Below, piece after piece: positions 5,131 through 28,819 of a stretch of 32,000 nt of DNA. A program made the translations under genes and the position numbers. How positions within the stretch are numbered: position 1 is the first letter of the stretch; the number at the start of each line of letters is the position of its first letter. The notes under the pieces were generated by a model. The model ran no database searches, had not been told where the DNA came from, and saw only the letters and a program-made list of their open reading frames with translations. Origin of the DNA: Actinomycetales bacterium (lineage in GTDB: Bacteria; Actinomycetota; Actinomycetes; Actinomycetales; Angustibacteraceae); assembly GCA_035707965.1 (NCBI GenBank), contig DASSTJ010000190.1:1-32000 (forward strand), in the 5' to 3' direction.

Positions 5131-5247
5131 GAGGACATCCTGTACCCCGAGCTCGGCCGGCAGGAGCGATCGCCCTCGTGTGCTCGTCAGTCGGCCTCTG
5201 CGACCGTTGATCCTGCCGGTCGGTCCCGGGTACCCACCGGCGCTAGG

Positions 5248-5853: not shown

Positions 5854-5854
5854 C

Positions 5855-6487: not shown

Positions 6488-6570
6488 CCCCCGCCGTCCA
6501 GTGACCCCGACTCGTCCGCGCGTGGGGCGTGTCGCGTACGGCTGGGGCCACTCAACGGGGCGGAGCTGCG

Positions 6571-7530: not shown

Positions 7531-7580
7531 ACGGTGCCACGTCGCACAGGGCATCGTCTTGCGCTCACCCGCCTCCTTGC

Positions 7581-7596
7581 GTACAGCTTCCGGTAC
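7581..7596 (+). promoter_or_regulatory. Candidate YefM operator: two GTAC cores 12 bp centre to centre, just upstream of the yefM RBS
   Basis: cGTACa at 7580-7585 and gGTACg at 7592-7597 (GTAC at 7581-7584 and 7593-7596). The E. coli yefM-yoeB operator is described as paired palindromes with TGTACA cores. This is my recollection, not checked here. Confidence 0.3.
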
Positions 7597-7606
7597 GGGA
7601 GGTGCC

Positions 7607-7864
7607 ATGAAGGCGATGAGCTACACGGAGTCCCGCGCTCGCTATGTCGAGGTGCTGGACGGCGTCGTCAACGACCGCGAGGAAGTCATCATCACCAGGG
7701 CCGGACACGAGTCGGTCGTCATGGTGTCTGTCGACGACGACGAGTCTCTTCGCGAGACCGCGTACCTGATGCGTTCGCCGGCCAACGCGCGGCGCCTGCT
7801 CGATGCGATGGAGCGGCTCGAGTCAGGTCGAGGTGACGCCCACGACCTGATCGCGAACGACTGA
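7607..7864 (+). CDS. yefM: Type II antitoxin, Phd/YefM family
   Basis: [13 protein letters not shown]...[50 protein letters not shown] aligns closely by eye to E. coli YefM ([27 protein letters not shown]). GGGAGG RBS at 7597-7602, ATG at 7607. Confidence 0.9.
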   Translation: [85 protein letters not shown]

Positions 7865-7865
7865 G

Positions 7866-7907
7866 GTGCTCCTCGTCTGGGACACCGCTACGGCTAGCCC
7901 CGGATGA
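7866..7907 (+). pseudogene. Probable remnant of a yoeB-type toxin gene (13 codons then stop)
   Basis: GTG 7866 sits 1 nt after the yefM stop, the position where yoeB normally starts. It translates VLLVWDTATASPG*. LLVW resembles the KLIW/LVW start of YoeB toxins, after which similarity is lost. The stop lies 15 nt before the convergent LanC-like stop codon. Confidence 0.4.
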
Positions 7908-7922
7908 GGCGCTGGTCGGCGG

Positions 7923-9116
7923 TCACTCAAGCGCAGTAGTCGGGTGGTCGGGCCAGGGGACGGCGTAGGCGTCGTCGTGGCCCTCGCAGACTCGGGCGTA
8001 CCGGAGCAGCTCGCGGAGGATGCCGGCGTTGCCCATGGCCCATCCCGCGCGGGGTTCGAGGCTGCTCGGCGTCGCACGGTGCTCGTAGTTCGACCAGCGC
8101 ACGCCGGCGCCGTCGATGGTGGCGTGGGCCGCGAGGTCTTGAACGAGCACGTCCGCGAACTCGACGTCGTCACCGCGCTCGACGATGCGGTCGCAGGCGA
8201 GAGCGAGGACGCCGGCCGTGCCGCAGCAGCGCCCGTTGTTGTCCCAGAACCCTGGTCGAAGCCGCCGTGGTAGCCCGGAGTCGCGGACCGTCGTCCAGCA
8301 GCGGTCTCCCAGCGTCGTCCAGGTGTCGTCCCCGGTGACCCGAGCGAGCAGCCGGAAGGCCTGAGCGTCACCGGCTGGTCCGTTGCACCAGCCGTAGCTG
8401 TACCGGTCGATCAGGTCCGGTCGGTGCGGGGGGTCCGAGTGCGGGACCAGGAAGCCCTCGGGCCCGGCCTCGTTGCGGCTCACCACGTCGGCGGCACCGG
8501 CCAGTGCCAGCTCGAGCAGGTCTCCTCGGCCCGCCGCGTGGCCCACGGCTGCCAGGGCGTAGACGATGCCCAGCGTCCCGTGCGCCAGGTGGTGCGAGCG
8601 GGCCGGCGAAGGCCGGACCGACCAGTTGACGCCGGCTGCGGTCGCGTCAGCGGTGGTGAGGTACGGCGTGACCGCCATGACGGCCAGGTCGAGGTCCCCG
8701 GCGTGCATCGCGCCGAGGGCGATGCCGGCGTTGCCCATGAACAGCTCGAACATGGGGTTCCATCGCTGGCCGTCGAAGCGGTGCCGCACGTGGTCGAGTG
8801 CGCGGGCCGCCGCGCCGGCTCGGCCCAGCGCGTGCAAGGTGAAGGCCGTGCCGGCGAGGCCGAAGTAGAGCGAGCAGCTCTCAGTGTCCTCGACCCGGGC
8901 AACGAGCTGGTCCGCGCCGCGTTCGACGGCATCGCGACAGCGGTCGTCGGCGAAGTGCTCGTGAGCCTCCCGCAGCGCGAGGACCACGCCGGCGAGCCCG
9001 TGGTAGAGCGAGCTGTCCTCGGCGGACTCGGTCTCGCGGTTCATGAGCCAGTCGGCCGCGCCGCGAGCGAGCTGCGCAGCGAGCTGTCCGGAGACGAGCC
9101 GATCCGGGTGACCCAC
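7923..9116 (-). CDS. Stand-alone LanC-like (lanthionine synthetase C family) protein
   Basis: Seven Gly-rich alpha/alpha-toroid repeats: YHGLAGV, YFGLAGT, FMGNAGIALG, LAHGTLGIVYAL, GWCNGPAGDA, RCCGTAGVLAL, WAMGNAGILREL. GTG 9116 (in frame, 397 aa) is preferred. ATG 9044 is an alternative. The 691-aa version in the ORF track runs antisense through the methyltransferase gene. Confidence 0.8.
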   Translation of the reverse strand: MGHPDRLVSGQLAAQLARGAADWLMNRETESAEDSSLYHGLAGVVLALREAHEHFADDRCRDAVERGADQLVARVEDTESCSLYFGLAGTAFTLHALGRAGAAARALDHVRHRFDGQRWNPMFELFMGNAGIALGAMHAGDLDLAVMAVTPYLTTADATAAGVNWSVRPSPARSHHLAHGTLGIVYALAAVGHAAGRGDLLELALAGAADVVSRNEAGPEGFLVPHSDPPHRPDLIDRYSYGWCNGPAGDAQAFRLLARVTGDDTWTTLGDRCWTTVRDSGLPRRLRPGFWDNNGRCCGTAGVLALACDRIVERGDDVEFADVLVQDLAAHATIDGAGVRWSNYEHRATPSSLEPRAGWAMGNAGILRELLRYARVCEGHDDAYAVPWPDHPTTALE

Positions 9117-9167
9117 GGCCTCGAGGCTAACCCCCGTCCGGCAACGGCGTCGGCCTAGAGTCCGTCC

Positions 9168-9878
9168 ATGAGCGACTGGACCATCGGGAACGACCGTGCC
9201 GAGCTCGAGCGGCAGTACGGGACCCAGACCAGGCTCCGGACGCGCGCCGGCTTCTGGGCGCCGAGCCCTCCCGGAGAGTCGCCGCAGGACATCGCGCTCG
9301 AAGCGCTGAGAACGAGTGGAGCGCGCGAGGTGCTCGAGATCGGCTGCGGTCGCGGTCTGTTCGCGCAGCGCCTGCAGACGGAGCTCGGCGTGCGGGTGCT
9401 GGCCACCGACCGGTCCGTCGCGATGGTCCAGGCGACGGCGGGGCGCGGCGTCAGTGCAGAGGTCGCCGACGCGGACCACCTGCCCTACCCGGCCGACAGC
9501 TTCGACGCCGTGGTGGCGATGTGGATGCTCTACCACGTGCCGGATCTCGACCGGACGCTCGCGGAGGTGCGTCGTGTCCTCAGGCCCGGGGGCGTGCTGG
9601 TTGCTGTCACGAACGGCCGGCGGCACACCGCGGACCTTCGAGCCGAGGCCGGGCTCGGGCCGGCCGTCACCTCGTTCATGGCGGAGGACGGCGCGGACCA
9701 CCTGTCCCGCCACTTCGACGAGGTCACGACGACGCCGACCTCGGGCAGGGCGGTCGCCGACCACGCGACGGCGCAGGCCTACCTGTCGACCTTCGCGCCC
9801 CAGGCGGCGGAACGCCTCGCCCCGTTCGAGGGCACGCGCACCTACACCGGCAGCGGTGCCGTGCTCGTCGCCCGATGA
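9168..9878 (+). CDS. Class I SAM-dependent methyltransferase
   Basis: Motif I VLEIGCGRGLF, then acidic-loop and post-I-like segments (VLATDRS, ADHLPYPADSFDAVVA, LRPGGVLV). Divergent from the LanC-like gene with about 51 bp between the start codons. Confidence 0.85.
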   Translation: MSDWTIGNDRAELERQYGTQTRLRTRAGFWAPSPPGESPQDIALEALRTSGAREVLEIGCGRGLFAQRLQTELGVRVLATDRSVAMVQATAGRGVSAEVADADHLPYPADSFDAVVAMWMLYHVPDLDRTLAEVRRVLRPGGVLVAVTNGRRHTADLRAEAGLGPAVTSFMAEDGADHLSRHFDEVTTTPTSGRAVADHATAQAYLSTFAPQAAERLAPFEGTRTYTGSGAVLVAR

Positions 9879-9913
9879 GCGCACGGCCCGGGAGCACGAC
9901 GCGAGGAGGTCGC

Positions 9914-10747
9914 ATGTCGACGCAGCGGGGCGCCGCCCTCCGGGGGGTTCAGGTCGTCTGCTTGGCGACGAACCTTCCCGGACCCGTCGCGGCCGCACGG
10001 CTCGTGGCGCTCGGGGCGTCGGTCGTCAAGGTCGAGCCGCCCACCGGCGACCCGCTCGGGCTGGCGGTGCCGGACTGGTACCGCGAGCTCGTCGCCGGCC
10101 AAGAGGTGCTCACCCTCGACCTGAAGGACGCAGCGGGCCGCGCCACGCTCGAGACGCGGCTGGAGACGGCGGACGTGCTGCTGACCGCCATGCGTCCGTC
10201 CGCGGCGAGCAGGCTCGGCCTCGGTGAGAGCGTCGCCCACCACGGCCTCGTGCTGGTCGAGATCGTCGGCTACGACGGCGACCGCGCCGAGGAGGCCGGG
10301 CACGACCTCACGTACCAGGCGGCTCAGGGCACGATCGTGCCTCCGGTGATGCCGCTGGTGCCGGTCGTCGACCTGCTGGGCGCGGAGCGCGCGGTGACCG
10401 CGGTGCTGGTCGGGCTGCGCCGACGTGACGCCGGCGAGTCGGCCCCGCACGTGCGCGTCGTCCTGGACGACGCCGCCACCGGCGCCTCCGCGGCGCTGCG
10501 TCACGGGCTCACGGGTCCGGGCGGGGCGCTCGGCGGAGCGCTACCTGGCTACGGCATCTACGCCACCGCCGACGGCCACGTAGCGGTCGCCGCGCTCGAG
10601 CCGCACTTCGCGCAGCGACTGGCCGGCGCCGTGGGGAGCACGCGCGAAGAGCTGACCGCGCGGTTCGCGAGCGAGCCGAGCGCCCACTGGGAGGCGCTGG
10701 CGCGCTCGCTCGACATCCCGATCGTCGCGCTGCGCCCGCCCGGGTGA
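9914..10747 (+). CDS. Family III CoA-transferase / alpha-methylacyl-CoA racemase-like protein (short form, 277 aa)
   Basis: LRGVQVVCLATNLPGPVAAARLVALGASVVKVEPP, AGHDLTYQAAQG and PGYGIYATADGHVAVAALEPHFAQRL parallel the CaiB/BaiF/AMACR motifs (GHDINY..., YRTADG...GAIEPQF). GAGGAGG RBS lies before ATG 9914. Confidence 0.8.
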   Translation: MSTQRGAALRGVQVVCLATNLPGPVAAARLVALGASVVKVEPPTGDPLGLAVPDWYRELVAGQEVLTLDLKDAAGRATLETRLETADVLLTAMRPSAASRLGLGESVAHHGLVLVEIVGYDGDRAEEAGHDLTYQAAQGTIVPPVMPLVPVVDLLGAERAVTAVLVGLRRRDAGESAPHVRVVLDDAATGASAALRHGLTGPGGALGGALPGYGIYATADGHVAVAALEPHFAQRLAGAVGSTREELTARFASEPSAHWEALARSLDIPIVALRPPG

Positions 10748-10837
10748 TCCTCGGGCAGCGCCGCGCTGAGCGCCCGGAGCGGAATGCCCTGCGGCTCCCG
10801 CACCGTTGAACGACCACGACACCAGTGAGGAGCGAGC

Positions 10838-11476
10838 ATGGCCAGGATCGTCGTCATCGGGGGCACCGGTTACACCGGTGGGAACATCGTCGCTGAGGCC
10901 GCCGCGCGTGGGCACGACGTCGTGTCGGTCAGCCGGACGGCGCCGAAGCAGGCGGTCCCCGGCGTGCGGTACGAGCTTGGCGACGTCGAGCGGGTGGCCG
11001 CCACGGCCGTCGCGGACGCCGACGTCGTGGTGGCGGCGTTGTCGCCGCGGGGGCCGATGGCGGGACGACTCGTCGACACGTACTCGAAGCTCGCTCGGCT
11101 CGCCGCGGACAACGGTGCCCGTTACCTGCAGGTCGGCGGGTTCAGCTCCCTGCGCCCGGCCCCTGGCGCGCCGCGTTTCGTCGAGGGCGACGTGCCGGAG
11201 GAGTTCCGCGAGGAGGCCCGTGAGGGCGAGGCGACCCGCGCCATGCTCGCCGACACGGCACCCGAGGGCCTGGACTGGCTGTTCCTCAGCCCGGCAGGGG
11301 CGTACGGGTCGTTCGCGCCCGGTGAGCGCACGGGCACGTACCGCGTGGGCGGCGAGATCGCCCTCTTCGACGCCGAGGGTTCCTCTGCCCTGTCCGGGGC
11401 CGACTTCGCCATCGCGGTCGTCGACGAGATCGAGGCACCCGCTCACCACCGGGAGCACATCGGGATCGCCTACTGA
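10838..11476 (+). CDS. NAD(P)H-binding protein, NmrA / atypical SDR-like
   Basis: MARIVVIGGTGYTGGNIVAEAAARGHDVVSVSR is a Rossmann GxxGxxG N-terminus. Size and C-terminal pattern are typical of NAD(P)H-binding (BVR-B/NmrA-like) proteins. GAGGAG RBS. Confidence 0.75.
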   Translation: MARIVVIGGTGYTGGNIVAEAAARGHDVVSVSRTAPKQAVPGVRYELGDVERVAATAVADADVVVAALSPRGPMAGRLVDTYSKLARLAADNGARYLQVGGFSSLRPAPGAPRFVEGDVPEEFREEAREGEATRAMLADTAPEGLDWLFLSPAGAYGSFAPGERTGTYRVGGEIALFDAEGSSALSGADFAIAVVDEIEAPAHHREHIGIAY

Positions 11477-11541
11477 GGGCGTTCACGGGCGCCGTCGGCA
11501 GCTCGCTGCGGTCGCAGGCAAAGCCCTCAGAGGGTTGACGG

Positions 11542-12546
11542 CTACGAGCCGACGGCGGCGCGGATCGTCTCGCGCAGCGAGCTCATGGTCGCGAGGACGG
11601 CGGTCGGCTCGTAGCCGCAGTGCGCCATGCAGTTGGCGCAGCGGTCGTCCTTGCCGCGCCCGTACGCGTCCCAGTCGGTGTCGTCGATGAGCTCCGCATA
11701 GGTCTTCACGTACCCGTCCGCCATGAGGTAGCACGGGCGCTGCCACCCCTTGAGCGAGTACGACGGGATGGCCCACGCCGTGCAGCTGAAGTCGACCTTG
11801 CCCTCGAGGAAGTCGAGGAAGAGGGGCGAGTGGTTGAGGCGCCACTTCTTCCGGCGTCCGTCGCCGAAGGCCTTCCGGAAGAGCTCGCGCGTCTGGTCGA
11901 CACCCAGCCAGTGCTCCTGGTCCGGCGCGTGCTCGTAGGCATAGGCCGGCGAGATCTGCATGTTGTCGACCTCGAGCTCGTCGTTGAGGAAGTCCAGGAC
12001 GTCGATGACGTCCTGGGGCGTGTCGGTGTCGAAGAACGTCGTGTTCGTCATGACCCGGAACCCCGCCGCTCTCGCTTGACGGATCGCAGCGACCGCCTGG
12101 TCGAAGACGCCGTCCTTGCAGACCGAGGCGTCGTGCCGCTCGCGCAGCCCGTCGATGTGCACCATCCACGCGAAGTTGCGGTGCGGTGCGAACCGATGGA
12201 GGTGCCTCGGGAGCAGCAGTGCGTTGGTGCAGAGAAAGACGATCTTGTGTCGCTTCAGCAGCTGGCGCACGATCTCGTCGACCTGCTTGTGCATCAAGGG
12301 CTCGCCGCCGGCGATGGACACCATCGGAGCGCCGCACTCCTCGATCGCGCCGACGGCCTGCTCGACCGACATGCGTTGCCGCAGCACGTCGGCGGGGTGC
12401 TGGATCTTGCCGCAGCCGGCGCAGTGGAGGTTGCACGCGAACAGCGGCTCCAGCTCGACCAGCAGGGGGAACTTCTCGCGACGCAGCACCTTCTGCTTGA
12501 GCAGGTAGGTGCCGAGACGCACGGACTGGTGCAGCGGCATGGACAC
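11542..12546 (-). CDS. hpnH: Adenosyl-hopene transferase (radical SAM)
   Basis: ELEPLFACNLHCAGCGK (CxxxCxxC radical-SAM cluster), SIAGGEPL, and C-terminal CANCMAHCGYEP are typical of HpnH. It sits in the hopanoid operon. GTG 12546 is preceded by GGGAGG. ATG 12540 is an alternative. Confidence 0.9.
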   Translation of the reverse strand: MSMPLHQSVRLGTYLLKQKVLRREKFPLLVELEPLFACNLHCAGCGKIQHPADVLRQRMSVEQAVGAIEECGAPMVSIAGGEPLMHKQVDEIVRQLLKRHKIVFLCTNALLLPRHLHRFAPHRNFAWMVHIDGLRERHDASVCKDGVFDQAVAAIRQARAAGFRVMTNTTFFDTDTPQDVIDVLDFLNDELEVDNMQISPAYAYEHAPDQEHWLGVDQTRELFRKAFGDGRRKKWRLNHSPLFLDFLEGKVDFSCTAWAIPSYSLKGWQRPCYLMADGYVKTYAELIDDTDWDAYGRGKDDRCANCMAHCGYEPTAVLATMSSLRETIRAAVGS

Positions 12547-12548
12547 TG

Positions 12549-14108
12549 TCAGCTCACCTCCCGGGGCAGCGTGAATCGCACGTCCTCGTCGACGACCTGG
12601 GTCTCGCGCACCCGCACCGGCCCGAGACCGGACAGGCAGCGCACGAGGTCGTCGACGAGACGTGAGGGTGCGGAGGCACCGGCGGTGATGCCGACGCGGC
12701 GTGCACCGGCGAGCCAGCGCAGGTCGACATCCGAGGCGTCGTCGACGAGGTAGGACGGGGCGCCCTCGGCCTCGGCGACCTCGGCGAGCCGGTGCGAGTT
12801 GGAGGAGTTCTGCGACCCCAGGACCAGGACCAGGTCGCTCTCGCGCGCGATTGCGCGAACGGCCAGCTGCCGATTCGTGGTCGCGTAGCAGATGTCGTCC
12901 TTGCGTGGAGCCGACAGCGCGGGAAACCGTTGCCGCAGAACGGCTGCCGTCTGCTCTGCCTCGTCCACCGCCAGGGTTGTCTGCATCACGTAGGACACGT
13001 GCTCGGGGTCACGGACGTCGACCCGGCTGGCGGCGTCGGGATCCGCGACCACGACCACGTTGCTCGGTGCCTCACCTCGGGTACCCACGACCTCCTCGTG
13101 CTCCTCGTGGCCGATGAGGAAGACGGTGCTGTCCCGCGACGCGAACCGCCGTACCTCGTGGTGCACCTTGGCGACGAGAGGGCAGGTGGCGTCGACGACC
13201 TGGAGGCGGCGTTCCACGGCCTGCTGCCGTACCGACGGCGCGACGCCGTGCGCGGCCAGCACGGCGACGCTGCCGTAGGGCACCTCGTCGAGCTCGGTGA
13301 CGAAGACGGCTCCTCTGCGCTCCAGCTCTGAGACCACGTGGCGGTTGTGGACGATCTGGCGGCGCACGTACACCGGTGCACCGTGCCGCTCGAGGGCGCG
13401 CTCGACGATCTCGATGGCCCGCTCGACTCCTGCGCAGAACGACCGCGGCGCGGCGAGAAGGACCTCGCGCTCGCCGGTCGCGGCCGCCCACGCCTCGAGC
13501 GCCGGTGCGGCGGAGCGGAGGGAGCGCAGGGCGCCGACGCCGCGCCAGGCGGTGCCCGGCCGCAGCAGCGGCAGGCTCGGGGTGTCGACGACGGCGCGGA
13601 CGGCGACGGTCTGGCCGGAGGGGGCGCGCGCAGTCAGGAACGCCGACTCGGTGTCGACCGCAAGGGCTTGCTCTGCGAGGCGTTCGCGCAGCTCACGTCG
13701 TTCGTGGTGAGCACGGACCACGTGGTCGCTGGAGTAGACCGGCCCGACGTGCACGGACAGTCCCAGGCGCCGCAGCGCCCCGGCGACGAGGGGTGCGGCG
13801 TAGGAGGGGTAGCGGGCACCGCGCGTCCGCACCTCGTCGGAGACCACGAGGTCGCCGGGTCGGAGGTCGTCGCTCAGCGCGCCGGCCACCCCGGCGACGA
13901 GCAGCGGGCGGTGGACGACCGGGTGCTCGTCGTCGTCGAGGTTGCCGCCCGGGGACGTGGTGATCGCCGGTCGGGAGAAAGCCAGGTGCGGTGGCACGTG
14001 TCCGGTCGGGCCCGGGCCCGTCCGCACGTGCGCGGCGCGCAGCCTCCCCCGCAGCGCCAGGCCCTCGGCGAGCAGCGGCGTGCAGATCAGCCCCAGCGGT
14101 TCAGCCAT
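12549..14108 (-). CDS. hpnG-ispH: Fusion of a hopanoid-associated phosphorylase (HpnG-like, PNP/UDP family) with 4-hydroxy-3-methylbut-2-enyl diphosphate reductase (IspH/LytB)
   Basis: The N-part, about 200 aa (LLVAGVAGALSDDLRPGDLVVSDEV...ALAVDTESAFL), is nucleoside-phosphorylase/HpnG-like. From EVLLAAPRSFCAGVERAIEIVERAL...VYVRRQIVHN...DATCPLVAKVH...VMQTTL...ICYATTNRQ...VLGSQNSSNSHRL it is canonical IspH with its three Cys. There is no stop and no in-frame ATG/GTG/TTG in the roughly 35 codons I read just upstream of the IspH domain. ATG 14108 overlaps the shc stop by 8 nt. Confidence 0.8.
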   Translation of the reverse strand: MAEPLGLICTPLLAEGLALRGRLRAAHVRTGPGPTGHVPPHLAFSRPAITTSPGGNLDDDEHPVVHRPLLVAGVAGALSDDLRPGDLVVSDEVRTRGARYPSYAAPLVAGALRRLGLSVHVGPVYSSDHVVRAHHERRELRERLAEQALAVDTESAFLTARAPSGQTVAVRAVVDTPSLPLLRPGTAWRGVGALRSLRSAAPALEAWAAATGEREVLLAAPRSFCAGVERAIEIVERALERHGAPVYVRRQIVHNRHVVSELERRGAVFVTELDEVPYGSVAVLAAHGVAPSVRQQAVERRLQVVDATCPLVAKVHHEVRRFASRDSTVFLIGHEEHEEVVGTRGEAPSNVVVVADPDAASRVDVRDPEHVSYVMQTTLAVDEAEQTAAVLRQRFPALSAPRKDDICYATTNRQLAVRAIARESDLVLVLGSQNSSNSHRLAEVAEAEGAPSYLVDDASDVDLRWLAGARRVGITAGASAPSRLVDDLVRCLSGLGPVRVRETQVVDEDVRFTLPREVS

Positions 14109-20443: not shown

Positions 20444-21673
20444 ATGGCGGTGCAGACGCTGCGCGCGAGCTCACCGGGCGGGCCGGCGGAGGACGCGCTG
20501 GACGGCTTCACGGCGGCGCTGGGCGACCGGCTTCCCGAGCTGCTGCGGGAGGTCGGTGACCTCCTGCGCGACGACTGGCCGGACTACGCGCGGTTCCTGG
20601 ACGAGAGCCGCCCGGCAGTGGCCGAGGCCGGACGGATGTTCGTCCAACGCCTCGTCGCGGTCGCCCGGCTCAGACTGGTGCCGTCCGCCCCGCCGCTGTC
20701 CACGGCGACCGCCAGGGTTGCTGAGGTGGACGCCGTCTTCGACCAGATCGGACGCATGCAGTGGCAGCGCGGGCACGAGCTGACCGAGCTGCTGACGGCC
20801 TACCAGGTGGGCGCCCAGGCGGCCTGGCGTCACGTCTCCGACACCGCCCTCGACCTCGGGCTCCCACCGGGGGTCCTGTCGGTGCTCGCGGAGGCCGTCT
20901 TCGTCTTCGTCAACCAGCTGTCCTCCGCGTCCGCCCACGGCTACGTGCTCGAGCAGTCCGAGTCGAGCGCTGCGCGGGAGCGGCTGCGGCAGGAGCTGTC
21001 CGACCTGCTGCTGTCGGACCGCACCGACACGGCCACCGTGCAGATCGCCGCGTCGCGCGCCGGCTGGACGTTGCCGGGCCGCGCCGCCGTGATCCTCGTG
21101 GACCCGAGCGACCCGCAGGCGCGGGCCGTCGTCGAGCGGCTCGACTCCCGCTGCCTCCCGGTACGCCGGGAGCGACTCTACGGAGCGATCGTCCCCGATC
21201 CGTCGGACCGGCGGCTCCGCGACCGGGCCGCCCGTGCGCTCACTGGCGCGCACGCCGTCGTGGGGCACCCTGTCCCGCTGGAGCTGCTCCCCGCCAGCAC
21301 CCAGGTCGCCCAGATCGCCCTGGACCTGTGCTCGCGCGGCCTCCTCGACGGCGACCCCGTGTTCGCGAGCGACCACATCGACGTGATCATCGCTCACCGT
21401 GACGAACGGCTCATGGCGGTGCTGCGTAGCCAGGTCCTGCAGCCGCTCGACACGCTGTCACCGGCGCGCCGGCAGCAGCTCACGGAGACGCTCGCGGCGT
21501 GGCTGCGGACGATGGGGGACCGGCGTGCGGTCGCGGAGGAGCTGCACATCCACCCGCAGACCGTCCGCTACCGGGTCGGCCAGCTGCGGTCGATCCTCGG
21601 CGGCGCACTCGACTCGCCGGAGTCGCGCGCCAAGATGTTCCTGGCGCTCTGCTTCGGATCGGTTGCGTCCTGA
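20444..21673 (+). CDS. PucR/CdaR-family transcriptional regulator (C-terminal HTH)
   Basis: The C-terminal LTETLAAWLRTMGDRRAVAEELHIHPQTVRYRVGQLRSILG is the PucR-type HTH. It is transcribed divergently from the hopanoid operon. Confidence 0.8.
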   Translation: MAVQTLRASSPGGPAEDALDGFTAALGDRLPELLREVGDLLRDDWPDYARFLDESRPAVAEAGRMFVQRLVAVARLRLVPSAPPLSTATARVAEVDAVFDQIGRMQWQRGHELTELLTAYQVGAQAAWRHVSDTALDLGLPPGVLSVLAEAVFVFVNQLSSASAHGYVLEQSESSAARERLRQELSDLLLSDRTDTATVQIAASRAGWTLPGRAAVILVDPSDPQARAVVERLDSRCLPVRRERLYGAIVPDPSDRRLRDRAARALTGAHAVVGHPVPLELLPASTQVAQIALDLCSRGLLDGDPVFASDHIDVIIAHRDERLMAVLRSQVLQPLDTLSPARRQQLTETLAAWLRTMGDRRAVAEELHIHPQTVRYRVGQLRSILGGALDSPESRAKMFLALCFGSVAS

Positions 21674-23748
21674 GCGCTCGGGACCGCGGTGAGACCGACG
21701 GTCGGCGCGGGGCGAGCCCCCGAGACGTCCGGCAGCTCGACCGAGGGTGGCCGCTCGTCCAGCTCGTCCAGCACCGCGGCCATCGCCGTGGAGAGCCGGC
21801 CGGCGTCCAGCGTCTCGCCGCGGGTCACGAGCCCGACACCGAGCTGGTCACCCCAGCTCAGGGCGCCCACCGCGAGAGGAGTGCCGGGAGCGAGCGGGAT
21901 GATCGGCACGACGTCCTCGATCGGCACGCCCACGAGGTCCAGCTGCTGCCGCGGCCCTGGCATGTTCGAGACGATCGCCTGCAGGAACGCCTGGCTGTAG
22001 ACCGTGCGCGCGAACCAGCGCAGGCCCGGCTCCGGCGTCAGCTCCAGCACCTTCGCCATCACGAAGCGGGACGCCAAGGCGCGCGTGGGGGTGTGCAGCG
22101 GCCCGGTGCGCCGTCGGACCTCGGTGAGCAGGTCGGCGGGCACGTCGATGTCGACCGGCAGATCCACCATGACGGCGGCCGTGACGTTGCCCTCGGCCGC
22201 GCTGTCGGGCTGGCGCACCATGAGAGGCACGGCCACGCGCAGCCGTCCCTCGAGCCGCGCGACGAACGAGGGCTGCTCCCGTTGCAGGGCAGCGACCACG
22301 AGGCACAGCAGCAGGTCGGTGACGCGTGCCTCGTGGGCGCGGGCGACGTCCCGGACGCGGTCCAGGGGAAGCCACGAGCAGCAGAAGTCCGTCGTAGCGT
22401 CGTGCGGCGGCGGGACGCGCGCGGCGGGGCGGCCGTCCGTCGCTAGCTGGGCCAGCCCGACCACCGTCGCGGCCGCCTGCTTCAGCGCAGGCACCTCACG
22501 TCGTCCGTCCGGCACGAGGTCGATCCGTGGTCGGAAGAGCTGCACGGCCTGCGCCACCGTGCCGATGCCGTCGGCCACGCAGTGGTGCACCAGGAGCAGC
22601 ATCGTGGAGCGCCCCACCTCAGGAGCGCGCACCAGGACGATCCGCCACATCGGCCGGTCGCGCGGCAGCAGCCGGGACGCCAGGTCGCCGACGACCCGGC
22701 CCACGGCCGCGACCGCCTCGTCCCTGGTGGCACCCGGCACGCTCAGCTCGGTCACGTGCCACGACCAGTCCAGCGGTCCGGCGTCCACCCAGCGCGGCCG
22801 GCGCCACCGTGTGCCGCCGTCGAGGCGTTGCGTGAACCGGGGCAGGCGCCCCAGCTCGCTGCGGACGAGGTCACGGACCTCGTCGACGGAGGGCCCGCCA
22901 CCCGGGGCCAGCACGACGACACCGCCCACGTGCTGCGGTGCCCGCGGTGCCTCCGCGTGCAGGAAGAACGCGTCGGTGGCGGGCACGCGTCCGCGGCGCC
23001 CGGGGTCGCACCAGCGGTCGACCACCGCGACGCTCACCCACACGAACGGGACGGCGGCGAGCGCGTCGACCAGGTAGTGGTTCGCCGTCGCGAGGATGAC
23101 GAGGACGGTGACGGCGACGTGGACGGCGCTGACGACCTGGACGCCGAGACCGCGCGACTGCCGCGCCAGCACGACCGACACCCACAGCGCCCAGGCGACG
23201 TGGAGCGACGGCATCGCAGCCAGCTGGTTGGCGTGCGTGACGAGCGGCATGCCCCACGAGCCGATGGTGCCGCCGCGGGTCACCGTGTCGACGAGACCGA
23301 GGTCGGTCATCAGGCGAGGCGGCGTCATGGGGAACAGCCAGAAGCAGGTGATCCCCAGCAGGTTCAGCAGGACGAACGAGCTGCGGGCCGGGCGGTAGTC
23401 GGCCGGAGCGCGCACGTAGAGCCAGGTCAGCAGGGCCAGTGCGCTGACGACGTACGTGAAGGCGTACTCGTAGTTCGCGATCGTCGAGAGCACCTGGTGC
23501 GGCGCGAGCCACGCGTTGAGCGGGCGCTCGACGTCCAGGTGCAGTGACCGCTGCAGGTCGATGACGAGCTGTGCGTGGCGGTCGGCGGCTGCTCGTCGCT
23601 CCGGGCCCCCTTGGGAGTCGACGAGCAGGTAGAGGCCGAAGACCACGAGGCCGCCGGCCAGCTCCCGCCACAGCAGCGGCCGGACGCCGGACCCGGAGCC
23701 ACGGGTGGCGTGAGGTGGGGACGCGGTGGCCGGACCGCTCACGGTCAC
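21568..23748 (-). CDS. Fusion of an N-terminal PAP2-superfamily membrane domain (PAP2_3/IPC-synthase-like) with a wax ester synthase/diacylglycerol acyltransferase (WS/DGAT)
   Basis: The N-part is polytopic, with FPMTPPRL, NQLAAMPSLHVAWALW and ATANHYLVDALAA (the H...H..D motif set of PAP2_3-type enzymes). From DAFFLHAEAPRAPQHVGGV it is WS/DGAT, with the catalytic HHCVADGIG and the C-terminal SNMPGPRQQLDLVGVPIEDVVPIIPLAPG block. GTG 23748 (AGGA upstream) or GTG 23742. The 779-aa version overlaps the upstream gene. Confidence 0.8.
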   Translation of the reverse strand: MTVSGPATASPPHATRGSGSGVRPLLWRELAGGLVVFGLYLLVDSQGGPERRAAADRHAQLVIDLQRSLHLDVERPLNAWLAPHQVLSTIANYEYAFTYVVSALALLTWLYVRAPADYRPARSSFVLLNLLGITCFWLFPMTPPRLMTDLGLVDTVTRGGTIGSWGMPLVTHANQLAAMPSLHVAWALWVSVVLARQSRGLGVQVVSAVHVAVTVLVILATANHYLVDALAAVPFVWVSVAVVDRWCDPGRRGRVPATDAFFLHAEAPRAPQHVGGVVVLAPGGGPSVDEVRDLVRSELGRLPRFTQRLDGGTRWRRPRWVDAGPLDWSWHVTELSVPGATRDEAVAAVGRVVGDLASRLLPRDRPMWRIVLVRAPEVGRSTMLLLVHHCVADGIGTVAQAVQLFRPRIDLVPDGRREVPALKQAAATVVGLAQLATDGRPAARVPPPHDATTDFCCSWLPLDRVRDVARAHEARVTDLLLCLVVAALQREQPSFVARLEGRLRVAVPLMVRQPDSAAEGNVTAAVMVDLPVDIDVPADLLTEVRRRTGPLHTPTRALASRFVMAKVLELTPEPGLRWFARTVYSQAFLQAIVSNMPGPRQQLDLVGVPIEDVVPIIPLAPGTPLAVGALSWGDQLGVGLVTRGETLDAGRLSTAMAAVLDELDERPPSVELPDVSGARPAPTVGLTAVPSAQDATDPKQSARNILARDSGESSAPPRIDRSWPTR

Positions 23749-23827
23749 CGTCCTAGCACGAGCGCGCCCTTCGCACAGGTGGTCACGCTCGTGCACGTCT
23801 CGGCGAAGGTGCCGCGTGCGCTTCGGC

Positions 23828-24541
23828 TCAGACGCGGCTGCGCGACAGGCTGAGGTGGACGCCCGGCACGCGGCCCAGCCGGCTCCAGCCCCAGTAGGCG
23901 CACGCAACCACGGTGGCCACCGTGAGCAGGCTGCTGAGCATGCCTCGCGACATCAGCCCGGCGTCGAGGCCCCAGTGCAGGAAGCCGAGGCTCATGCCGG
24001 CGTCCAGCACCCGAGAGAAACCCCAGAGCAGGGCCACCTGCGCGAACATGCGGCGCACCCGGCGGTCGGCGAAGAGGTGGCGGGGGAGCGCCACGAAGTC
24101 CTGGGCGAGCCGCATCGTGACGGGGCGGCCGATGGCGACGCTGCCGAGGAAGAGCAGCGCCATGAAGAGCGACCCGGCCACCGGCTGCAGCAGGTAGACG
24201 TAGACGCTCGAGAAGGCCATGGCGATCGACGTGCGGCCCACGAGCATGCCGACCGCGAGCAGCAGCGTGCTGGGCACGCGCCTGCCGGTCGCCCACCGCA
24301 GCGAGAGGGCAGCGGCGCACCAGCTCAGCACGGCGACCATTCCCCAGAACGAGCCGACGGTGCGCACGCACGCCAGCAGCAGGAGCGTCGGCACGACGAC
24401 CGTCTCGAGCAGCATCCGCACGCCGTGCAGGGCGGCTGGACGCAGGGTCGCGAGGTCGAGCACGAAGGGTTCGTCGACGTCACCGCGACCGAGGTGCGAG
24501 GGGTGGCTCAGCGCCGGGGGCGGAACGGACATACCAACCAC
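23828..24541 (-). CDS. Integral membrane protein of unknown function (about six predicted TM helices)
   Basis: Six hydrophobic stretches (LLETVVVPTLLLLACV, WGMVAVLSWCAAAL, LLLAVGMLVGRTSIAMAF, VYLLQPVAGSLFMALLFLGSVAI, FAQVALLWGFSRVL, LSSLLTVATVVACAYWGW). AGGAGG lies about 10 nt upstream of GTG 24541. Same strand as the flanking SDR and PAP2::WS/DGAT genes. Confidence 0.6.
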   Translation of the reverse strand: MVGMSVPPPALSHPSHLGRGDVDEPFVLDLATLRPAALHGVRMLLETVVVPTLLLLACVRTVGSFWGMVAVLSWCAAALSLRWATGRRVPSTLLLAVGMLVGRTSIAMAFSSVYVYLLQPVAGSLFMALLFLGSVAIGRPVTMRLAQDFVALPRHLFADRRVRRMFAQVALLWGFSRVLDAGMSLGFLHWGLDAGLMSRGMLSSLLTVATVVACAYWGWSRLGRVPGVHLSLSRSRV

Positions 24542-24570
24542 TATCGCATCTCCTCCTGGAGGTGTCCGGA

Positions 24571-24616
24571 CGTCGGCTCACCGCCCGCGTGCGTCCTGGC
24601 AGCCGGTGAGCCGACG
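24571..24616 (-). other. Intercistronic stem-loop (13-bp perfect stem, 20-nt loop) between the SDR gene and the membrane-protein gene
   Basis: CGTCGGCTCACCG (24571-24583) pairs with CGGTGAGCCGACG (24604-24616). Possible extension GTCC (24564-24567) with GGAC (24617-24620). No U-tract follows on the transcribed (-) strand. It lies roughly 15-20 nt upstream of the AGGAGG RBS of the next gene. Confidence 0.5.
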
Positions 24617-24668
24617 GACCTTCGCTCATCGGCATGATCGCCGTCCCGCCTGAGAGTTCCCTGTGGTG

Positions 24669-25481
24669 TCACGGCCAGCGGCTGCCCGGCCGCACTCGTC
24701 GCCCTGCGTCACCGGCCAGCCGGTGCCTCCCGCCGAAGGCGGCGCTGAGCCCGCGGTAGGGCCCCGGGGCGAGCGCACGGGCGGCTGGCGCCAGCCGGAG
24801 CCAGCGCGGCACCCACACCTCGGGGCGGCCGTCGGCGATGGAGCGCACCACGGCCGTCGCGACCGCCTGGGGCGGGACCGGCCGAGGAAGCGCACGGTCG
24901 TACGGGCGGCCCCGGTTCGCGAAGAAGTCGGTGTCGACCACTCCGGGGACGACGACGCTGACGTGCACACCGCTACGGCGGGCCTCGGCCCGCAGGCTCT
25001 CGGCGAACGCGTCCAGCCCCGCCTTCGCTGCCGAGTACACCGCCTCGCCGGCCACCGGAGACCGACCGGCCACCGACGTGACGAAGCAGACCGCACCCCG
25101 TCCGCGGTCGACCATGCCGGGCACCAGCAGCCGCGTGAGGTGGACGGCGGCCGACAGGTTCACCTCGAGGACGCGGTCGACGTCGTCCGCCGTCATGGCA
25201 GTGACCGGGCCGGACCAGCCGACGCCGGCGTTGTTGACCAGCACGTCGACGCGCCCGTGGACCTCGGTGGCGTTCCTCACCAACGCGTCCCGCTGAGCCG
25301 GATCGGCGAGCTCCGCGACGAGCGGCGTGCCGCCCGTGAGCGAGACGACGTCGTCGAGCCGCAGTCGGTCCCGGCCGTGCACCAGCACGTGCACGCCGTG
25401 GTCGGCGAGCTCGAGCGCGACGGAACGACCGATCCCCGATGACGCTCCGGTGATGAGCGCAACGCTGCCGGTGAGCTCCAC
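24669..25481 (-). CDS. Short-chain dehydrogenase/reductase (classical SDR)
   Basis: TGASSGIG cofactor motif, NNAG, and catalytic S...YSAAK (VYSAAKAGL). GTG 25481 with GGGAG upstream. Confidence 0.9.
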   Translation of the reverse strand: MELTGSVALITGASSGIGRSVALELADHGVHVLVHGRDRLRLDDVVSLTGGTPLVAELADPAQRDALVRNATEVHGRVDVLVNNAGVGWSGPVTAMTADDVDRVLEVNLSAAVHLTRLLVPGMVDRGRGAVCFVTSVAGRSPVAGEAVYSAAKAGLDAFAESLRAEARRSGVHVSVVVPGVVDTDFFANRGRPYDRALPRPVPPQAVATAVVRSIADGRPEVWVPRWLRLAPAARALAPGPYRGLSAAFGGRHRLAGDAGRRVRPGSRWP

Positions 25482-25592
25482 GGTGGCTCCCTGTGGTCCT
25501 CGGCCCCGTCGCCCAGCCTAGTTCCGCCGCCCGTGGTCGCGCCGATCGTCCGACATCGACGGCCCCCTGAGCGACCTGGGGAGCGCACGCCG

Positions 25593-25622
25593 AGCCGCCG
25601 AGCCCGAGGGGGCTCGGCGGCT
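25593..25622 (-). terminator. Candidate intrinsic (U-tract-less) terminator hairpin after the SRPBCC gene
   Basis: AGCCGCCGAGCCC (25593-25605), a GAGG tetraloop, then GGGCTCGGCGGCT (25610-25622). Perfect 13-bp GC-rich stem, 9 nt downstream of the SRPBCC stop at 25631. No T-run, as is common in high-GC actinobacteria. Confidence 0.45.
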
Positions 25623-25630
25623 GGCTGGCC

Positions 25631-26072
25631 TCAGGCGGGGACCTTCGCCTCGACCTGTGCCTTGAGGTTGCCGAGGAGCATGTCGAGCATCGGCTCGTGC
25701 TCCTTGACCATCATCGCCTCGACGGACTTGCCGACGACCGGGACCTTCACGGTCCACTCGCCGGTCGCGGTCACCTTGGTGCCGCCGTGTGCGCGCGAAC
25801 GTGAACGTCCAGGTGGGCTTCTCCGCGAAGAAGTGCACCTGGGCCACGATCCGCTTGTTGGGCACGACCTCGGTGTACTCGATGCCGCCTTCGATGTGGA
25901 ACCCCAGCAGGTGCGTGTACACCCGGGCCGACGTGCCGACACCCTCCGGTTTGATGTCGACCTCGGCCAGACCGACGTCCTTCACCTTCCAGAGCCGGTC
26001 GACGTCCAGCGCGTACTCGAACACGGACTCCACCGGGGCGTCGATCGTGATGCTGCGTGTCAGTGTGGTCAT
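25631..26072 (-). pseudogene. SRPBCC (START/polyketide-cyclase-like) protein interrupted by a frameshift
   Basis: One frame gives MTTLTRSITIDAPVESVFEYALDVDRLW...FFAEKPTWTFTFA and then turns into Arg-rich nonsense running to 25518. A second frame (ORF 25631..25942) gives HGGTKVTATGEWTVKVPVVGKSVEAMMVKEHEPMLDMLLGNLKAQVEAKVPA. Joined, they make a normal SRPBCC protein of about 146 aa. The frame switch lies within about 25785-25799 (GC-repeat gcgcgcg). Good RBS (GGAGAGGAG) before ATG 26072. Confidence 0.6.
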
Positions 26073-26326
26073 GACTGTTCATCTCCTCTCCCCGCCATCC
26101 ACGCTAGGTCTGCCGATCGAGGCGCTGTAGAGGAGTTCGTCCCGTGCGCCCTCAGCGATGGCCCCGACCCGCTGCTGTTCGTGGTCGGGCAGGACTGGGG
26201 CGGCCCCGATGACGGGGGGGCAGGTCCGGCCAGGTGGTCGCGTTCCCAGCGCCGGCACCGCGCGCGGGACATCCGTGACCCGGCCGAGCCTGCGGGCAAG
26301 GGCCGGCCGTGGGGCAGGATGACGCC

Positions 26327-26887
26327 ATGGGCTTCCAGATCGCAGGAGACGCGGACGCCGACCGCGTGCTCGACGAGCACCCCTTCGCCGTCGTGGTCGG
26401 GATGATGCTCGACCAGCAGTACGGCATGGAGCACGCGTTCCGCGGCGGGTACAAGGTGCTGAGCCGTTTCGGCACGCTCGACCCCGCGGCGATCGCGCAC
26501 GCGGCCCCGGACGAGTTCAAGGCGCTCTGCAGCACGCCGCCCGCGATCCACCGCTTCCCGGGTTCCATGGCGGCTCGGCTGCAGGAGCTGGCCGCGCTCG
26601 TCGTCGACAGGTACGACGGCGACGTCACCCGGCTGTGGACCGAGGCGTCGACCGGCGCCGAGCTGTTCAAGCGCGTCCAGGAGCTACCGGGGTTCGGCAA
26701 GCAGAAGGCGCAGATCTTCGTGGCGCTGCTGGCCAAGCAGCTCGGCGTCCGACCGCCCGGCTGGGAGGCGGCTGCCGGGGACTACGCGCTCGACGGCTAC
26801 CGGTCCGTCGCGGACGTCGTCGACGACGGCTCGCTGCAGAAGGTCCGTGAGTACAAGAAGCAGAAGAAGGCAGCGGCAGCCGGGTAG
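26327..26887 (+). CDS. HhH-GPD-type base-excision DNA repair protein (endonuclease III-related, unknown specificity)
   Basis: MGFQIAGDADADRVLDEHPFAVVVGMMLDQQ..., LPGFGKQKAQIFVALL (helix-hairpin-helix) and a Lys-rich tail match this family. ATG 26327 is preferred over the upstream in-frame GTG 26309. Confidence 0.75.
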   Translation: MGFQIAGDADADRVLDEHPFAVVVGMMLDQQYGMEHAFRGGYKVLSRFGTLDPAAIAHAAPDEFKALCSTPPAIHRFPGSMAARLQELAALVVDRYDGDVTRLWTEASTGAELFKRVQELPGFGKQKAQIFVALLAKQLGVRPPGWEAAAGDYALDGYRSVADVVDDGSLQKVREYKKQKKAAAAG

Positions 26888-26899
26888 GCGTCGGCCGCG

Positions 26900-28690
26900 T
26901 CAGATGCTCTGGCGGTAGCCGAAGAACTCGTGGTCCTGGTTGTACCCGCCGTGTCCGCCGCCCACCTCGGAGTAGTGGGCGACGAACTCCACGCCCTTGA
27001 TCCACTTGACCTGCTTGAAGCCGAGCTGGATCTCGTTGCGCAGGCGTAGCGGCGCGCCGTGGCCGTAGGACAGAGGCTGGTCGTTCATGTCGTACGCCAG
27101 CATCGTGAGGTGGTTGCGCATCTGCTCGATGGGGTGCGCGTCGTAGTAGATGCCGCCGTCCGGGCCGTCCGCGATGGAGTAGAACACCACCCACTTCGCC
27201 TCGGGCGCGGGACGCACGAGGTCCAGGATCGTCTGCATCGAGACGCCACCCCACTTGGCGACGCCCGACCAGCCCTGGATGCAGAAGTGCTGGGTGATCT
27301 GCTCGTGGTGGGGCAGGGCGCGCAGGTCGGCGAGGCTCAGGTCGACGGGGTTCTCCACCAGCCCGTTGACCCGCAGGCGGTAGTCGACGAACCCGCCGTC
27401 CTGCAGTGCCCGGTACTCCTCGGAGAGCGGGTAGGCGCCGTTGTGCCAGAAGTACGGAGAGATGTCCTTCTCCGTGTACTGGCCGGGCTTGGCGTCCACG
27501 TGCTCGAAGAGCCGCTGGACCGGCCCGATCAGCGCGAAGCCGACACGCTGGACGACCCGCGGGTGTCGCAGGGTCACGGGGGTGGCTGCGACCCAGCCCA
27601 CGACGACGACGACCATGGCCACGACGAACACCCAGAACCCGGTCCAGGAGTCGTCCTCACGGGCCGCGAACGCGTGGTTGAGGTTGGCACGCAGTCCGGT
27701 CGTGAAGACCAGCGTCACGTGGACCACGATGAAGAAGAGGAACCAGGCCATCACGAGGAAGTGCAGCGACCTCGCGGTCTGGATGCTCAGCACCGAGCTG
27801 ACCCGGCGGAACCGGGTGGACAGTGCCGGGGACATGCCGAGACCGGTGACCAGCGCGAGCGGTCCGGCGATGAAGACCGTCACGAAGTACGCCACGAGCT
27901 GCAGGCTGTTGTAGGCCCACCAGCCGTGCTCGGTCGGCCAGTCCAGGGACCCGTACTGGATCATCACGGACAGCGAGTTCGGTATGACGTCCCAGCTGGT
28001 CGGCACCAGCCGCCGCCAGTGACCGGTCGAGAAGATCAGGACGTAGAACACCAGCCCGTTGAGCAGCCACAGCGTGTCGACGCCCAGGTGCCACCACCGG
28101 GCCAGCCCGATCGAGTGGCGCAACCCGGGCAGCCCGACCTGGCCGGGCAGTGCGATCGAGTCCTGCTTCGCCGTCCACAGCGGGTCCTCCGGCACCGGGC
28201 GCTGGATGCGGAACCACTCCTTGCCCGGGGTGCTGTGCCGGGTCCAGTACAGCCGCGGGTGGTCGGTGAGGATCTGCACCCCGGACCGGACGATGAACGT
28301 CATGAGGAACAGGTTGAAGAAGTGCTGCCATCCGACCCAGGCCGGCAGGCCCGGCGCGAGCTGCGACTCGGGGATCGGGATGGTGCCGGGGTGGCGCTCG
28401 ATGAACGCCTGGACCGACGGATTGGCACGCAGTCCCTTGGCCGCGGCGACACCGACCAGCAGGATGACGAAGCCGATCGGCAGCAGCCAGAGCAGGTTGA
28501 ACCAGCGGCTGCGGCCGATGCGGATGCGTGGCGCCACCCCACCGATCTGGGGGATGGACCCCGCCCAGGTGGCCGGGTCGACGACGTCGTGACCTCGCTT
28601 GAGCTCGTGCCGATAGCTCTGCAGCACCGCGGCCGCGGTGTCCGGTGAGGTTGGTCCGGACTGTCGGTCGGGTTCCCCGGGAGTGGCCAT
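26900..28690 (-). CDS. Fusion of a membrane cytochrome b-like domain with a molybdopterin-dependent oxidoreductase domain (sulfite-oxidase/MsrP-YedY fold)
   Basis: The N-terminal ~380 aa has at least five hydrophobic helices with conserved His (WQHFFNLF, ARWWHLG, ARSLHFLV, VVHVTLV), reminiscent of b-type cytochrome subunits. The C-terminal part (ITQHFCIQGWSGVAKWGGVS...MLAYDMNDQPLSYGHGAPLRLRNEIQLGFKQVKWIKGVEF) is the Mo-cofactor catalytic domain. Confidence 0.8.
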   Translation of the reverse strand: MATPGEPDRQSGPTSPDTAAAVLQSYRHELKRGHDVVDPATWAGSIPQIGGVAPRIRIGRSRWFNLLWLLPIGFVILLVGVAAAKGLRANPSVQAFIERHPGTIPIPESQLAPGLPAWVGWQHFFNLFLMTFIVRSGVQILTDHPRLYWTRHSTPGKEWFRIQRPVPEDPLWTAKQDSIALPGQVGLPGLRHSIGLARWWHLGVDTLWLLNGLVFYVLIFSTGHWRRLVPTSWDVIPNSLSVMIQYGSLDWPTEHGWWAYNSLQLVAYFVTVFIAGPLALVTGLGMSPALSTRFRRVSSVLSIQTARSLHFLVMAWFLFFIVVHVTLVFTTGLRANLNHAFAAREDDSWTGFWVFVVAMVVVVVGWVAATPVTLRHPRVVQRVGFALIGPVQRLFEHVDAKPGQYTEKDISPYFWHNGAYPLSEEYRALQDGGFVDYRLRVNGLVENPVDLSLADLRALPHHEQITQHFCIQGWSGVAKWGGVSMQTILDLVRPAPEAKWVVFYSIADGPDGGIYYDAHPIEQMRNHLTMLAYDMNDQPLSYGHGAPLRLRNEIQLGFKQVKWIKGVEFVAHYSEVGGGHGGYNQDHEFFGYRQSI

Positions 28691-28696
28691 GCCGGC

Positions 28697-28724
28697 ACAT
28701 TAGACCCAGGGAGTTTGGTGAAAA
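28697..28724 (-). promoter_or_regulatory. Candidate promoter giving a leaderless transcript for the cyt b::Mo oxidoreductase gene
   Basis: On the - strand, TTTTCA (28724-28719), a 16-nt spacer, TAATGT (28702-28697), then 6 nt to ATG 28690. No Shine-Dalgarno sequence lies between. This is the most AT-rich patch in the 28691-28819 divergent region. Confidence 0.25.
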
Positions 28725-28819
28725 ATCAGCGGGGGCTGGCGAGTGCCGAACCTGTCCACGGCGAGCGGTGAGACGGCAGGTGGCCCCCACGGACGGGACG
28801 TTGCTGCCAGGATGGCCGC

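Follow-up and report, generated by a model that had tools for sequence, protein, structure and literature searches.

The 32,000-nucleotide stretch of DNA analysed here (the window: positions 1 to 32,000 of contig DASSTJ010000190.1, assembly GCA_035707965.1, from an uncultured soil Actinomycetales bacterium of the Angustibacteraceae) carries genes of nuo2, the second, reduced complex-I-like set of actinobacteria, in whose cluster nuoD, nuoE, nuoF and nuoG are absent. Here this set is split between nuoH and nuoI by 21.3 kb of other genes. The window has a G+C content of ~72%, its genes are cleanly delimited by the frame-specific G+C content of third codon positions (GC3), and they were identified by Pfam domain scans of open reading frames (ORFs). 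The left half consists of three genes on the + strand: nuoB2 (5248-5853, with a GTG start at 5248 or 5257; PF01058, Oxidored_q6), nuoC2 (5855-6487; PF00329, Complex1_30kDa) and, as its final gene, nuoH2 (6571-7530, with an alternative start at 6529; PF00146, NADHdh). The right half restarts on the same strand at 28820 with nuoI2 (28820-29434, two Fer4 motifs), nuoJ2 (29431-29979, Oxidored_q3), nuoK2 (29976-30341, Oxidored_q2) and nuoL2, which begins at 30338 and extends past the window end at 32000; the I/J, J/K and K/L junctions are all GTGA overlaps. The gap from 7531 to 28819 thus spans 21,289 bp and holds 19 genes on both strands, plus one toxin stub. The domain scans and ORF reading agree on these points with a first-pass annotation made from the DNA letters, which had also described nuoB-C-H as tightly packed. 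This trio does end at 7530 on the + strand, but nuoC and nuoH do not overlap, being 41-83 nt apart. NuoB, C, H, I, J, K and L are therefore the subunits represented, and no ORF of the window encodes a NuoD, E, F or G domain. NuoD is the subunit that normally forms the quinone site. The NuoC protein encoded at 5855-6487 lacks a NuoD part, and a NuoC-only protein is encoded in all nuo2 clusters. In Streptomyces, a separate nuoD2 is located elsewhere in the genome (PMC8388888).

Comparison with other actinobacteria reveals that both halves belong to a single paralogue lineage. A scan of species-representative genomes gave at least 80 loci with a NuoH 69-81% identical to that of the window, to which Angustibacter loci were added by separate look-ups. 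The loci listed come from Streptomyces, Nonomuraea, Kribbella, Pedococcus, Kineosporia and others, with NuoI identities of 65-82%, and when the window proteins are mapped onto them the shared set is B-C-H-I-J-K-L-M-N, without nuoD/E/F/G. The nearest NuoH proteins, which are 93-95% identical, are from soil metagenomes, and the nearest named genera by NuoH are Angustibacter (84-87%) and Thalassiella (81%), both Kineosporiaceae. The window NuoB is 88-94% identical to the nuo2 NuoB of four loci, namely the metagenomic sister locus L001, Angustibacter McL0619 (L003), Angustibacter Root456 (L085) and the metagenome-assembled genome (MAG) L084. Bit scores of NuoH are 530-637 with nuo2-type homologues and 202 with Mycobacterium smegmatis 8e9g_H, while NuoI is 75-88% identical to nuo2-type homologues and scores just 49 bits against 8e9g_I. 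The subunits are orthologous to those of nuo2, not to those of the canonical nuoA-N operon.

In its nearest named relatives, this gene set is unbroken. Angustibacter Root456 and two MAGs (L169 and L170) have a contiguous A-(small ORF)-B-C-H-I-J-K-L-M-N arrangement in which nuoH and nuoI overlap, and the contiguous nuo2 of Angustibacter encodes B and H proteins 84-92% identical, and I-L proteins 62-79% identical, to those of the window. These three loci and Thalassiella azotivora (L086), with NuoH identities of 82-87%, share the same B-C-H and I-N genes with the window. Their clusters are of a type flanked by a 2-oxoacid:ferredoxin oxidoreductase and a peptidase M48, whereas the window clade has different flanks on either side and a filled H|I junction. 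In all Streptomyces loci sampled, H directly adjoins I, just as the first-pass annotation had stated. The Streptomyces nuo2 is of the same paralogue lineage, has the same D/E/F/G-less repertoire and displays the same gene order within each half; it differs from the window in that I comes straight after H, without the intervening 19 genes (21.3 kb), and the window set has no adjoining nuoA. The published Streptomyces operon comprises nuoA2, B2, H2, I2, J, K2, L2, M2 and N2 (PMC8388888), and a literature search specific to nuo2 returned essentially nothing beyond that description, a broader complex-I paper (Spero et al. 2015) being without nuo2. Since B/C/H and I-L both match halves of single contiguous clusters rather than falling in different clades, and since unbroken versions exist in Root456, in both MAGs and in Streptomyces, the earlier proposal of a broken ancestral operon is supported: A-B-C-H-I-J-K-L-M-N was interrupted between nuoH and nuoI.

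None of the 19 genes in the gap is a nuo gene. The first is an intact but orphan YefM-type antitoxin gene (7607-7864, +; PF02604, E=4e-19), followed at the expected toxin start by a stub (7866-7907, +) reading VLLVWDTATASPG and a stop. Next come genes for a LanC-like protein (7923-9116, -), a methyltransferase (9168-9878, +), a CoA-transferase III (9914-10747, +) and a NAD_binding_10 protein (10838-11476, +). The largest unit is a seven-gene hopanoid cluster on the - strand (11542-20321), composed of HpnH (11542-12546; Radical_SAM and DUF3463), a 519-residue HpnG-IspH fusion (12549-14108; PNP_UDP_1 and LYTB), squalene-hopene cyclase (SHC; 14101-16095; SQHop_cyclase_N/C), a polyprenyl synthase (16092-17111), HpnE (17108-18541; Amino_oxidase), HpnD (18538-19413; SQS_PSY) and HpnC (19410-20321; SQS_PSY). 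Judged by domains only, HpnC/D/E, SHC, HpnG and HpnH are all present. The cluster is collinear in two sister loci, L001 and L171, where the HpnG-IspH fusion is likewise called (540 and 501 residues, respectively). The best named SHC matches outside the clade are those of Nocardia, Kribbella and Amycolatopsis (~73%), and no Kineosporiaceae appear among the best 120 SHC matches, from which it follows that Angustibacter probably lacks this hopanoid cluster. This fits, and does not prove, a gain in the window clade.

Beyond the hopanoid cluster lie a PucR regulator (20444-21673, +), also seen in L171, and a PAP2+WS/DGAT fusion on the - strand, spanning 21568 to about 23800-23907, whose C terminus is seen in L171 as well. 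In this ORF (21568-23907), a PAP2_3 phosphatase domain is fused to the catalytic and C-terminal domains of a wax-ester synthase/DGAT, and over ~100 nt its 3' end is shared with the convergent PucR gene. Three further genes on the - strand encode a 237-residue protein with no assigned identity (23828-24541), a short-chain dehydrogenase (SDR; 24669-25481) and an SRPBCC/AHSA1 protein (25518-26072). The gap closes with a HhH-GPD glycosylase-like gene (26327-26887, +) and a gene for a cytochrome b561/DUF4405+molybdopterin oxidoreductase fusion (26900-28690, -). The latter, a membrane domain fused to a molybdopterin domain, resembles MsrQ-MsrP.

While the first-pass annotation treated the gap as one block, comparison with sister loci shows that it is layered. 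The 2.6-kb layer formed by the HhH-GPD and oxidoreductase genes (26327-28690) is common to the whole clade, whereas the 18.8-kb lipid/hopanoid segment (7531-26326) is present in the window, L001 and L171 and, by blastn and tblastn against the window, absent from a fourth lineage, L168. In L168, the order is nuoB-C-H, HhH-GPD (+), oxidoreductase (-) and nuoI-J-K-L, with a gap of 2.7 kb; its NuoH is 94-95% and its oxidoreductase 92% identical to those of the window, no other contig being closer, and a 106-bp spacer, within which no remnant aligns, takes the place of window 7531-26326. The divergent oxidoreductase/nuoI junction is kept in L092 and L168, and 1.4 kb of additional DNA separates the oxidoreductase and HhH-GPD genes of L089. 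Because the HhH-GPD/oxidoreductase layer is clade-wide, the split, or at least this layer of it, dates to the clade ancestor. The left edge is more variable. The window has yefM and the toxin stub, then LanC, methyltransferase, CoA-transferase and NAD_binding_10 genes; L001 has a 173-residue membrane-protein ORF in place of the toxin-antitoxin (TA) remnant and is without NAD_binding_10; and in L171 nuoH is followed 54 bp later by LanC, the membrane-protein ORF in opposite orientation and HpnH, without the methyltransferase, CoA-transferase and NAD_binding_10 genes.

The oxidoreductase was also followed more widely, in 80 fetched metagenome loci carrying a protein with 72-95% identity. Among these, only L092 (nuoI-K) and L089 (the 3' end of HhH-GPD) keep a neighbour found in the window. 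The idea of a conserved block that moved as a whole was rejected, since the more distant oxidoreductase loci (72-79%) share no synteny with other block genes.

The split is not a singular event. We measured how far apart neighbouring nuo2 genes lie in 82 loci, which are not phylogenetically independent. The H|I junction exceeds 500 bp in 19 of them, 12 of these gaps being larger than 2 kb, and two more loci have no nuoI within 10 kb. A nuoH directly followed by nuoI is thus typical of nuo2 but not strictly defining, as 21/82 loci, and the window, are without it. Other junctions are seldom so affected: gaps above 500 bp occur in two loci each at B|C and J|K, in none at K|L and in seven at I|J, all under 0.9 kb. 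C|H is the exception in number, with 36 loci, mostly of 0.5-1.3 kb as in Streptomyces and with one exceeding 2 kb. The H|I interruptions, which we estimate to represent roughly eight separate events, therefore make the split a recurrent gene-order variant. As for their cargo, it is unrelated from one lineage to another: a Phd/ParE pair in Angustibacter McL0619 (0.6 kb), a 180-residue ORF in Thalassiella, GNAT and TetR genes in Kineosporia mesophila (2.3 kb), histone-deacetylase-like, peptidase, TetR and Opp transporter genes in MAG L084 (>10 kb), FtsX permease, two-component system, sigma factor, isochorismatase and MTHFR genes in Kribbella (8.7 kb), P450, STAND NTPase, and MmyB and LuxR regulator genes in Nonomuraea composti, and a membrane Ser/Thr kinase in 12 Streptosporangiales loci (1.5-5.9 kb). 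Like the window, these loci have mixed-strand, non-nuo cargo at the same junction and no integrase or transposase in it; the window differs in that its gap is the largest measured and holds a complete hopanoid cluster. The window is the most extreme measured case of the recurrent H|I pattern.

Three smaller observations concern the same clusters. The Streptosporangiales kinase is mostly on the opposite strand (L011, L012, L017, L024, L030, L045, L053, L054, L061, L071, L074 and L079), and in six of the 12 loci it is accompanied by a conserved protein of 312-328 residues with no Pfam match. In McL0619 (3548-8804) and L084 (107-8753), 5-8 kb of genes, most of them on the opposite strand and including an ABC transporter, come between nuoA2 and nuoB2, which makes A|B another broken junction in this family. 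Finally, ~1.4 kb is inserted between nuoJ and nuoK in two MAG loci (L005, 12023-13471; L064, 5948-7369).

Both halves have been kept by selection. Between lineages with the same split, the ratio of nonsynonymous to synonymous divergence (dN/dS) is 0.09 for nuoB, 0.20-0.23 for nuoC and 0.06-0.08 for nuoH in the left half, and 0.15-0.17 for nuoI, 0.12-0.13 for nuoJ, 0.25 for nuoK and 0.16 for nuoL in the right half, with dS values of 0.36-0.74. The ligands of the N2 cluster in NuoB are intact (CCAIE...GACS...GCPP), as are both CxxCxxCxxxCP motifs of NuoI. The two nuo halves are under purifying selection, and the NuoB/C/H and NuoI-L proteins are presumably still made and assembled.

How the right half is transcribed can be narrowed down. 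Upstream, nuoI is preceded by a gene on the other strand, and nuoI-L is under purifying selection, which bears out the earlier suggestion that nuoI-L needs its own promoter; transcription would have to start in or near the 129-bp divergent spacer (28691-28819), where we place the putative promoter. Alignment of this spacer in four lineages (the window, L092, L168 and L088) reveals blocks conserved in three or four of them. One of them, CACATTAGACC, lies beside the oxidoreductase start and reads on that strand as a -10-like TAATGT 7 nt from the ATG, which suggests that the oxidoreductase transcript may be leaderless. An A/T-rich hexamer is found ~95 nt upstream of nuoI, and a third block, GTTGCTGnCAGGATG, is the ribosome-binding site before the nuoI GTG. 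The left half would be served by the ~118-bp spacer (5131-5247) between nuoB and a divergent DUF1697 gene (4564-5130, -; PF08002), a presumed promoter region; this gene also adjoins nuoB in L001. The 31-codon N-terminal extension of nuoI, which had been thought to be acquired with the split, was not: contiguous nuo2 NuoI proteins have variable, low-complexity extensions of ~19-40 residues, and the extension is therefore a general nuo2 trait. Indeed, the VDE start of nuoI and the preceding CAGGATG...GTG are common to the window and McL0619.

The gap bears none of the marks of a mobile element that we looked for, in agreement with the first-pass annotation. There is no integrase or transposase domain in any of the 19 gap genes, no tRNA or Rfam match in the window, and no flanking repeat, as edge-to-edge alignments score no better than shuffled controls. 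The scan across the gap is flat, GC3 being 0.88-0.95 inside and outside (with lower values for the Phd-type antitoxin gene, 0.84, and SRPBCC, 0.76) and the tetranucleotide correlation 0.965-0.99 throughout. A mobile-element origin was rejected on these four counts. Like a genomic island, the gap is a large accessory block that some close relatives have and others lack, and one of its edges bears a TA fragment; unlike one, it shows neither integrase nor tRNA, and neither direct repeats nor a compositional shift.

The TA remnant itself had been seen as a rearrangement scar, a view that we find weak. The antitoxin is a full-length YefM homologue; among solved structures it matches E. coli YefM best (2a6q, E=7e-18 over 82 residues). 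Its intact cognate toxin is missing, the 13 codons of the stub ending in a stop and the LanC-like gene following 16 nt later; from its position and the N terminus of YoeB, the stub may be YoeB-like. Antitoxin homologues in two other loci (L130 and L133) are themselves truncated and have no intact partner toxin with which the stub could be compared. The remnant is absent from L001 and L171 although both carry the same split, and the TA pair at H|I in McL0619 is of the Phd/ParE type, different from the YefM type of the window. The remnant appears to be a small insertion of later date, since deprived of its toxin.

These findings point to the following sequence of events. An ancestor would have had nuo2 as one operon, A-B-C-H-I-J-K-L-M-N. 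In the window clade, non-nuo genes would have been inserted at the nuoH|nuoI boundary, probably by illegitimate or homologous recombination of ordinary chromosomal DNA: a clade-wide 2.6-kb pair, with the oxidoreductase facing away from nuoI, and, directly after nuoH in three of the four sampled lineages, the 18.8-kb lipid/hopanoid segment. The left edge of this segment appears to keep changing, the TA stub, the membrane-protein gene, the methyltransferase/CoA-transferase pair and the NAD-binding gene being gained or lost. The operon would now be at least two transcription units, nuoB-C-H read from the DUF1697/nuoB spacer and nuoI-L (presumably with M and N) from the 129-bp spacer. Taken as a whole, we consider it likely that nuo2 was broken by layered insertions at H|I and still functions as two units. 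Stepwise growth is the simpler reading given the states of the outgroups, which have no insert, a 0.6-kb TA pair or one small ORF.

Several observations weigh against this account. In the nuoH tree, the window, L001, L171 and L168 are monophyletic with 100% bootstrap, as sister to Angustibacter-like sequences (Kineosporiaceae), but the grouping of the window with L001 and L171 has just 9% bootstrap and L168 is not clearly basal. Neither nuoA nor nuoD is found in the window, nor in the 10 kb upstream in L001, and the positions of nuoM and nuoN fall beyond the window end, which bears on the completeness of the complex. A strict scan for the sigma-70 consensus and for terminators upstream of nuoI found nothing. 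Lastly, ~4 kb of the window (22.3-26.3 kb) are not covered by a second assembly.

The tree leaves room for a different order of events, in which one rearrangement put the whole 21-kb block into the clade ancestor and L168 later deleted 18.8 kb. Since L168 is not clearly basal, the segment may indeed have been lost there rather than gained by the others: in the tree, L168 tends to fall among the lineages that carry the block (52% with the window, 35% with L171), pairwise nuoH identities being nearly equal. However, such a deletion would have had to run exactly from the nuoH stop to the HhH-GPD start and leave no trace in the 106-bp spacer, and the outgroups have small inserts or none. We regard it as the less probable order.

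A further, tentative idea is that H|I is a built-in module boundary (B-C-H | I-N), perhaps with an internal promoter even where the operon is unbroken, which would make it a preferred landing site for accessory genes arriving independently in many lineages. Some of the cargo could by now have become dedicated partners or regulators; the Ser/Thr kinase of Streptosporangiales and the cytochrome-b/molybdopterin oxidoreductase of the window clade could be such candidates. That recruitment as nuo2 partners explains the inserted genes in general, with the oxidoreductase as redox partner, hopanoids tuning the proton tightness of the membrane, and kinases and other regulators, seems unlikely to us. 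The divergent oxidoreductase/nuoI pair is conserved through the clade and the kinase in the same gap of 12 loci, but apart from these, the inserts of different lineages are unrelated (TA pair, TetR, GNAT, Opp transporter, P450, sigma factor, two-component system), and in 70-odd more distant relatives the oxidoreductase is found in other contexts with no nuo neighbour.

It is more doubtful still that nuo2 is decaying in the window lineage, the split being a step towards its loss. The missing nuoA and nuoD would fit, as would the disappearance of the Angustibacter-type neighbourhood, with its 2-oxoacid:ferredoxin oxidoreductase upstream and peptidase M48 downstream. Yet the seven visible genes are intact, with conserved cofactor motifs and low dN/dS over a dS of ~0.5. 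A chimeric metagenome assembly is very improbable, even if the contig comes from a MAG and the 22.3-26.3 kb region stands on one assembly. The nuoH-LanC...hopanoid...PAP2/WS junction recurs in the independent contigs L001, L002 and L171. Together with L092, L168 and L089, these contigs, which come from other samples, repeat both junctions and most of what lies between, which rules out a chimera except for that region. Finally, that the halves are two unrelated partial nuo sets, neighbours by chance, is prompted only by their 21-kb separation, with nothing found in its favour, and is refuted by their orthology to single contiguous clusters of Angustibacter, Thalassiella and Streptomyces and by the mere 2.7 kb between them in L168.

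Two side observations concern neighbouring DNA. A POR/POR_N and TPP_enzyme_C pair (the 2-oxoacid:ferredoxin oxidoreductase) and an EamA transporter are encoded just upstream of nuoA2 in L003, L085, L086, L169 and L170, and in L085 and L170 the end of the canonical nuo operon (nuoN and a polyprenyl synthase) lies a few kb further upstream. The position of the ferredoxin oxidoreductase hints that nuo2 may take electrons from ferredoxin. In the window, a near-perfect palindrome at 805-869, richer in AT than the DNA around it, has 28-nt arms (96% complementary) separated by a 9-nt loop (GGAACTTGGTTGCCTTTGTGTACGGCAA...); it lies in frame in the ORF at 1-1905, within the linker that joins the E1_dh domain to the Transket_pyr domain. 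No copy of it is found in 171 fetched loci.

What we describe is no new kind of system or mechanism but a real, fairly ordinary operon break-up, a gene-order variant of a known gene set. It has been caught at several stages in close relatives, with inserts of 0.6 kb (a TA pair), 2.7 kb and 21 kb. It shows that the genes of a respiratory complex can stay under selection long after their operon has been cut, synonymous divergence since the cut being ~0.5, and any annotation pipeline that counts this complex only where its nuo genes are co-localised will get the number wrong. In the little-studied nuo2 system, the nuoH|nuoI boundary is a recurrent weak point.

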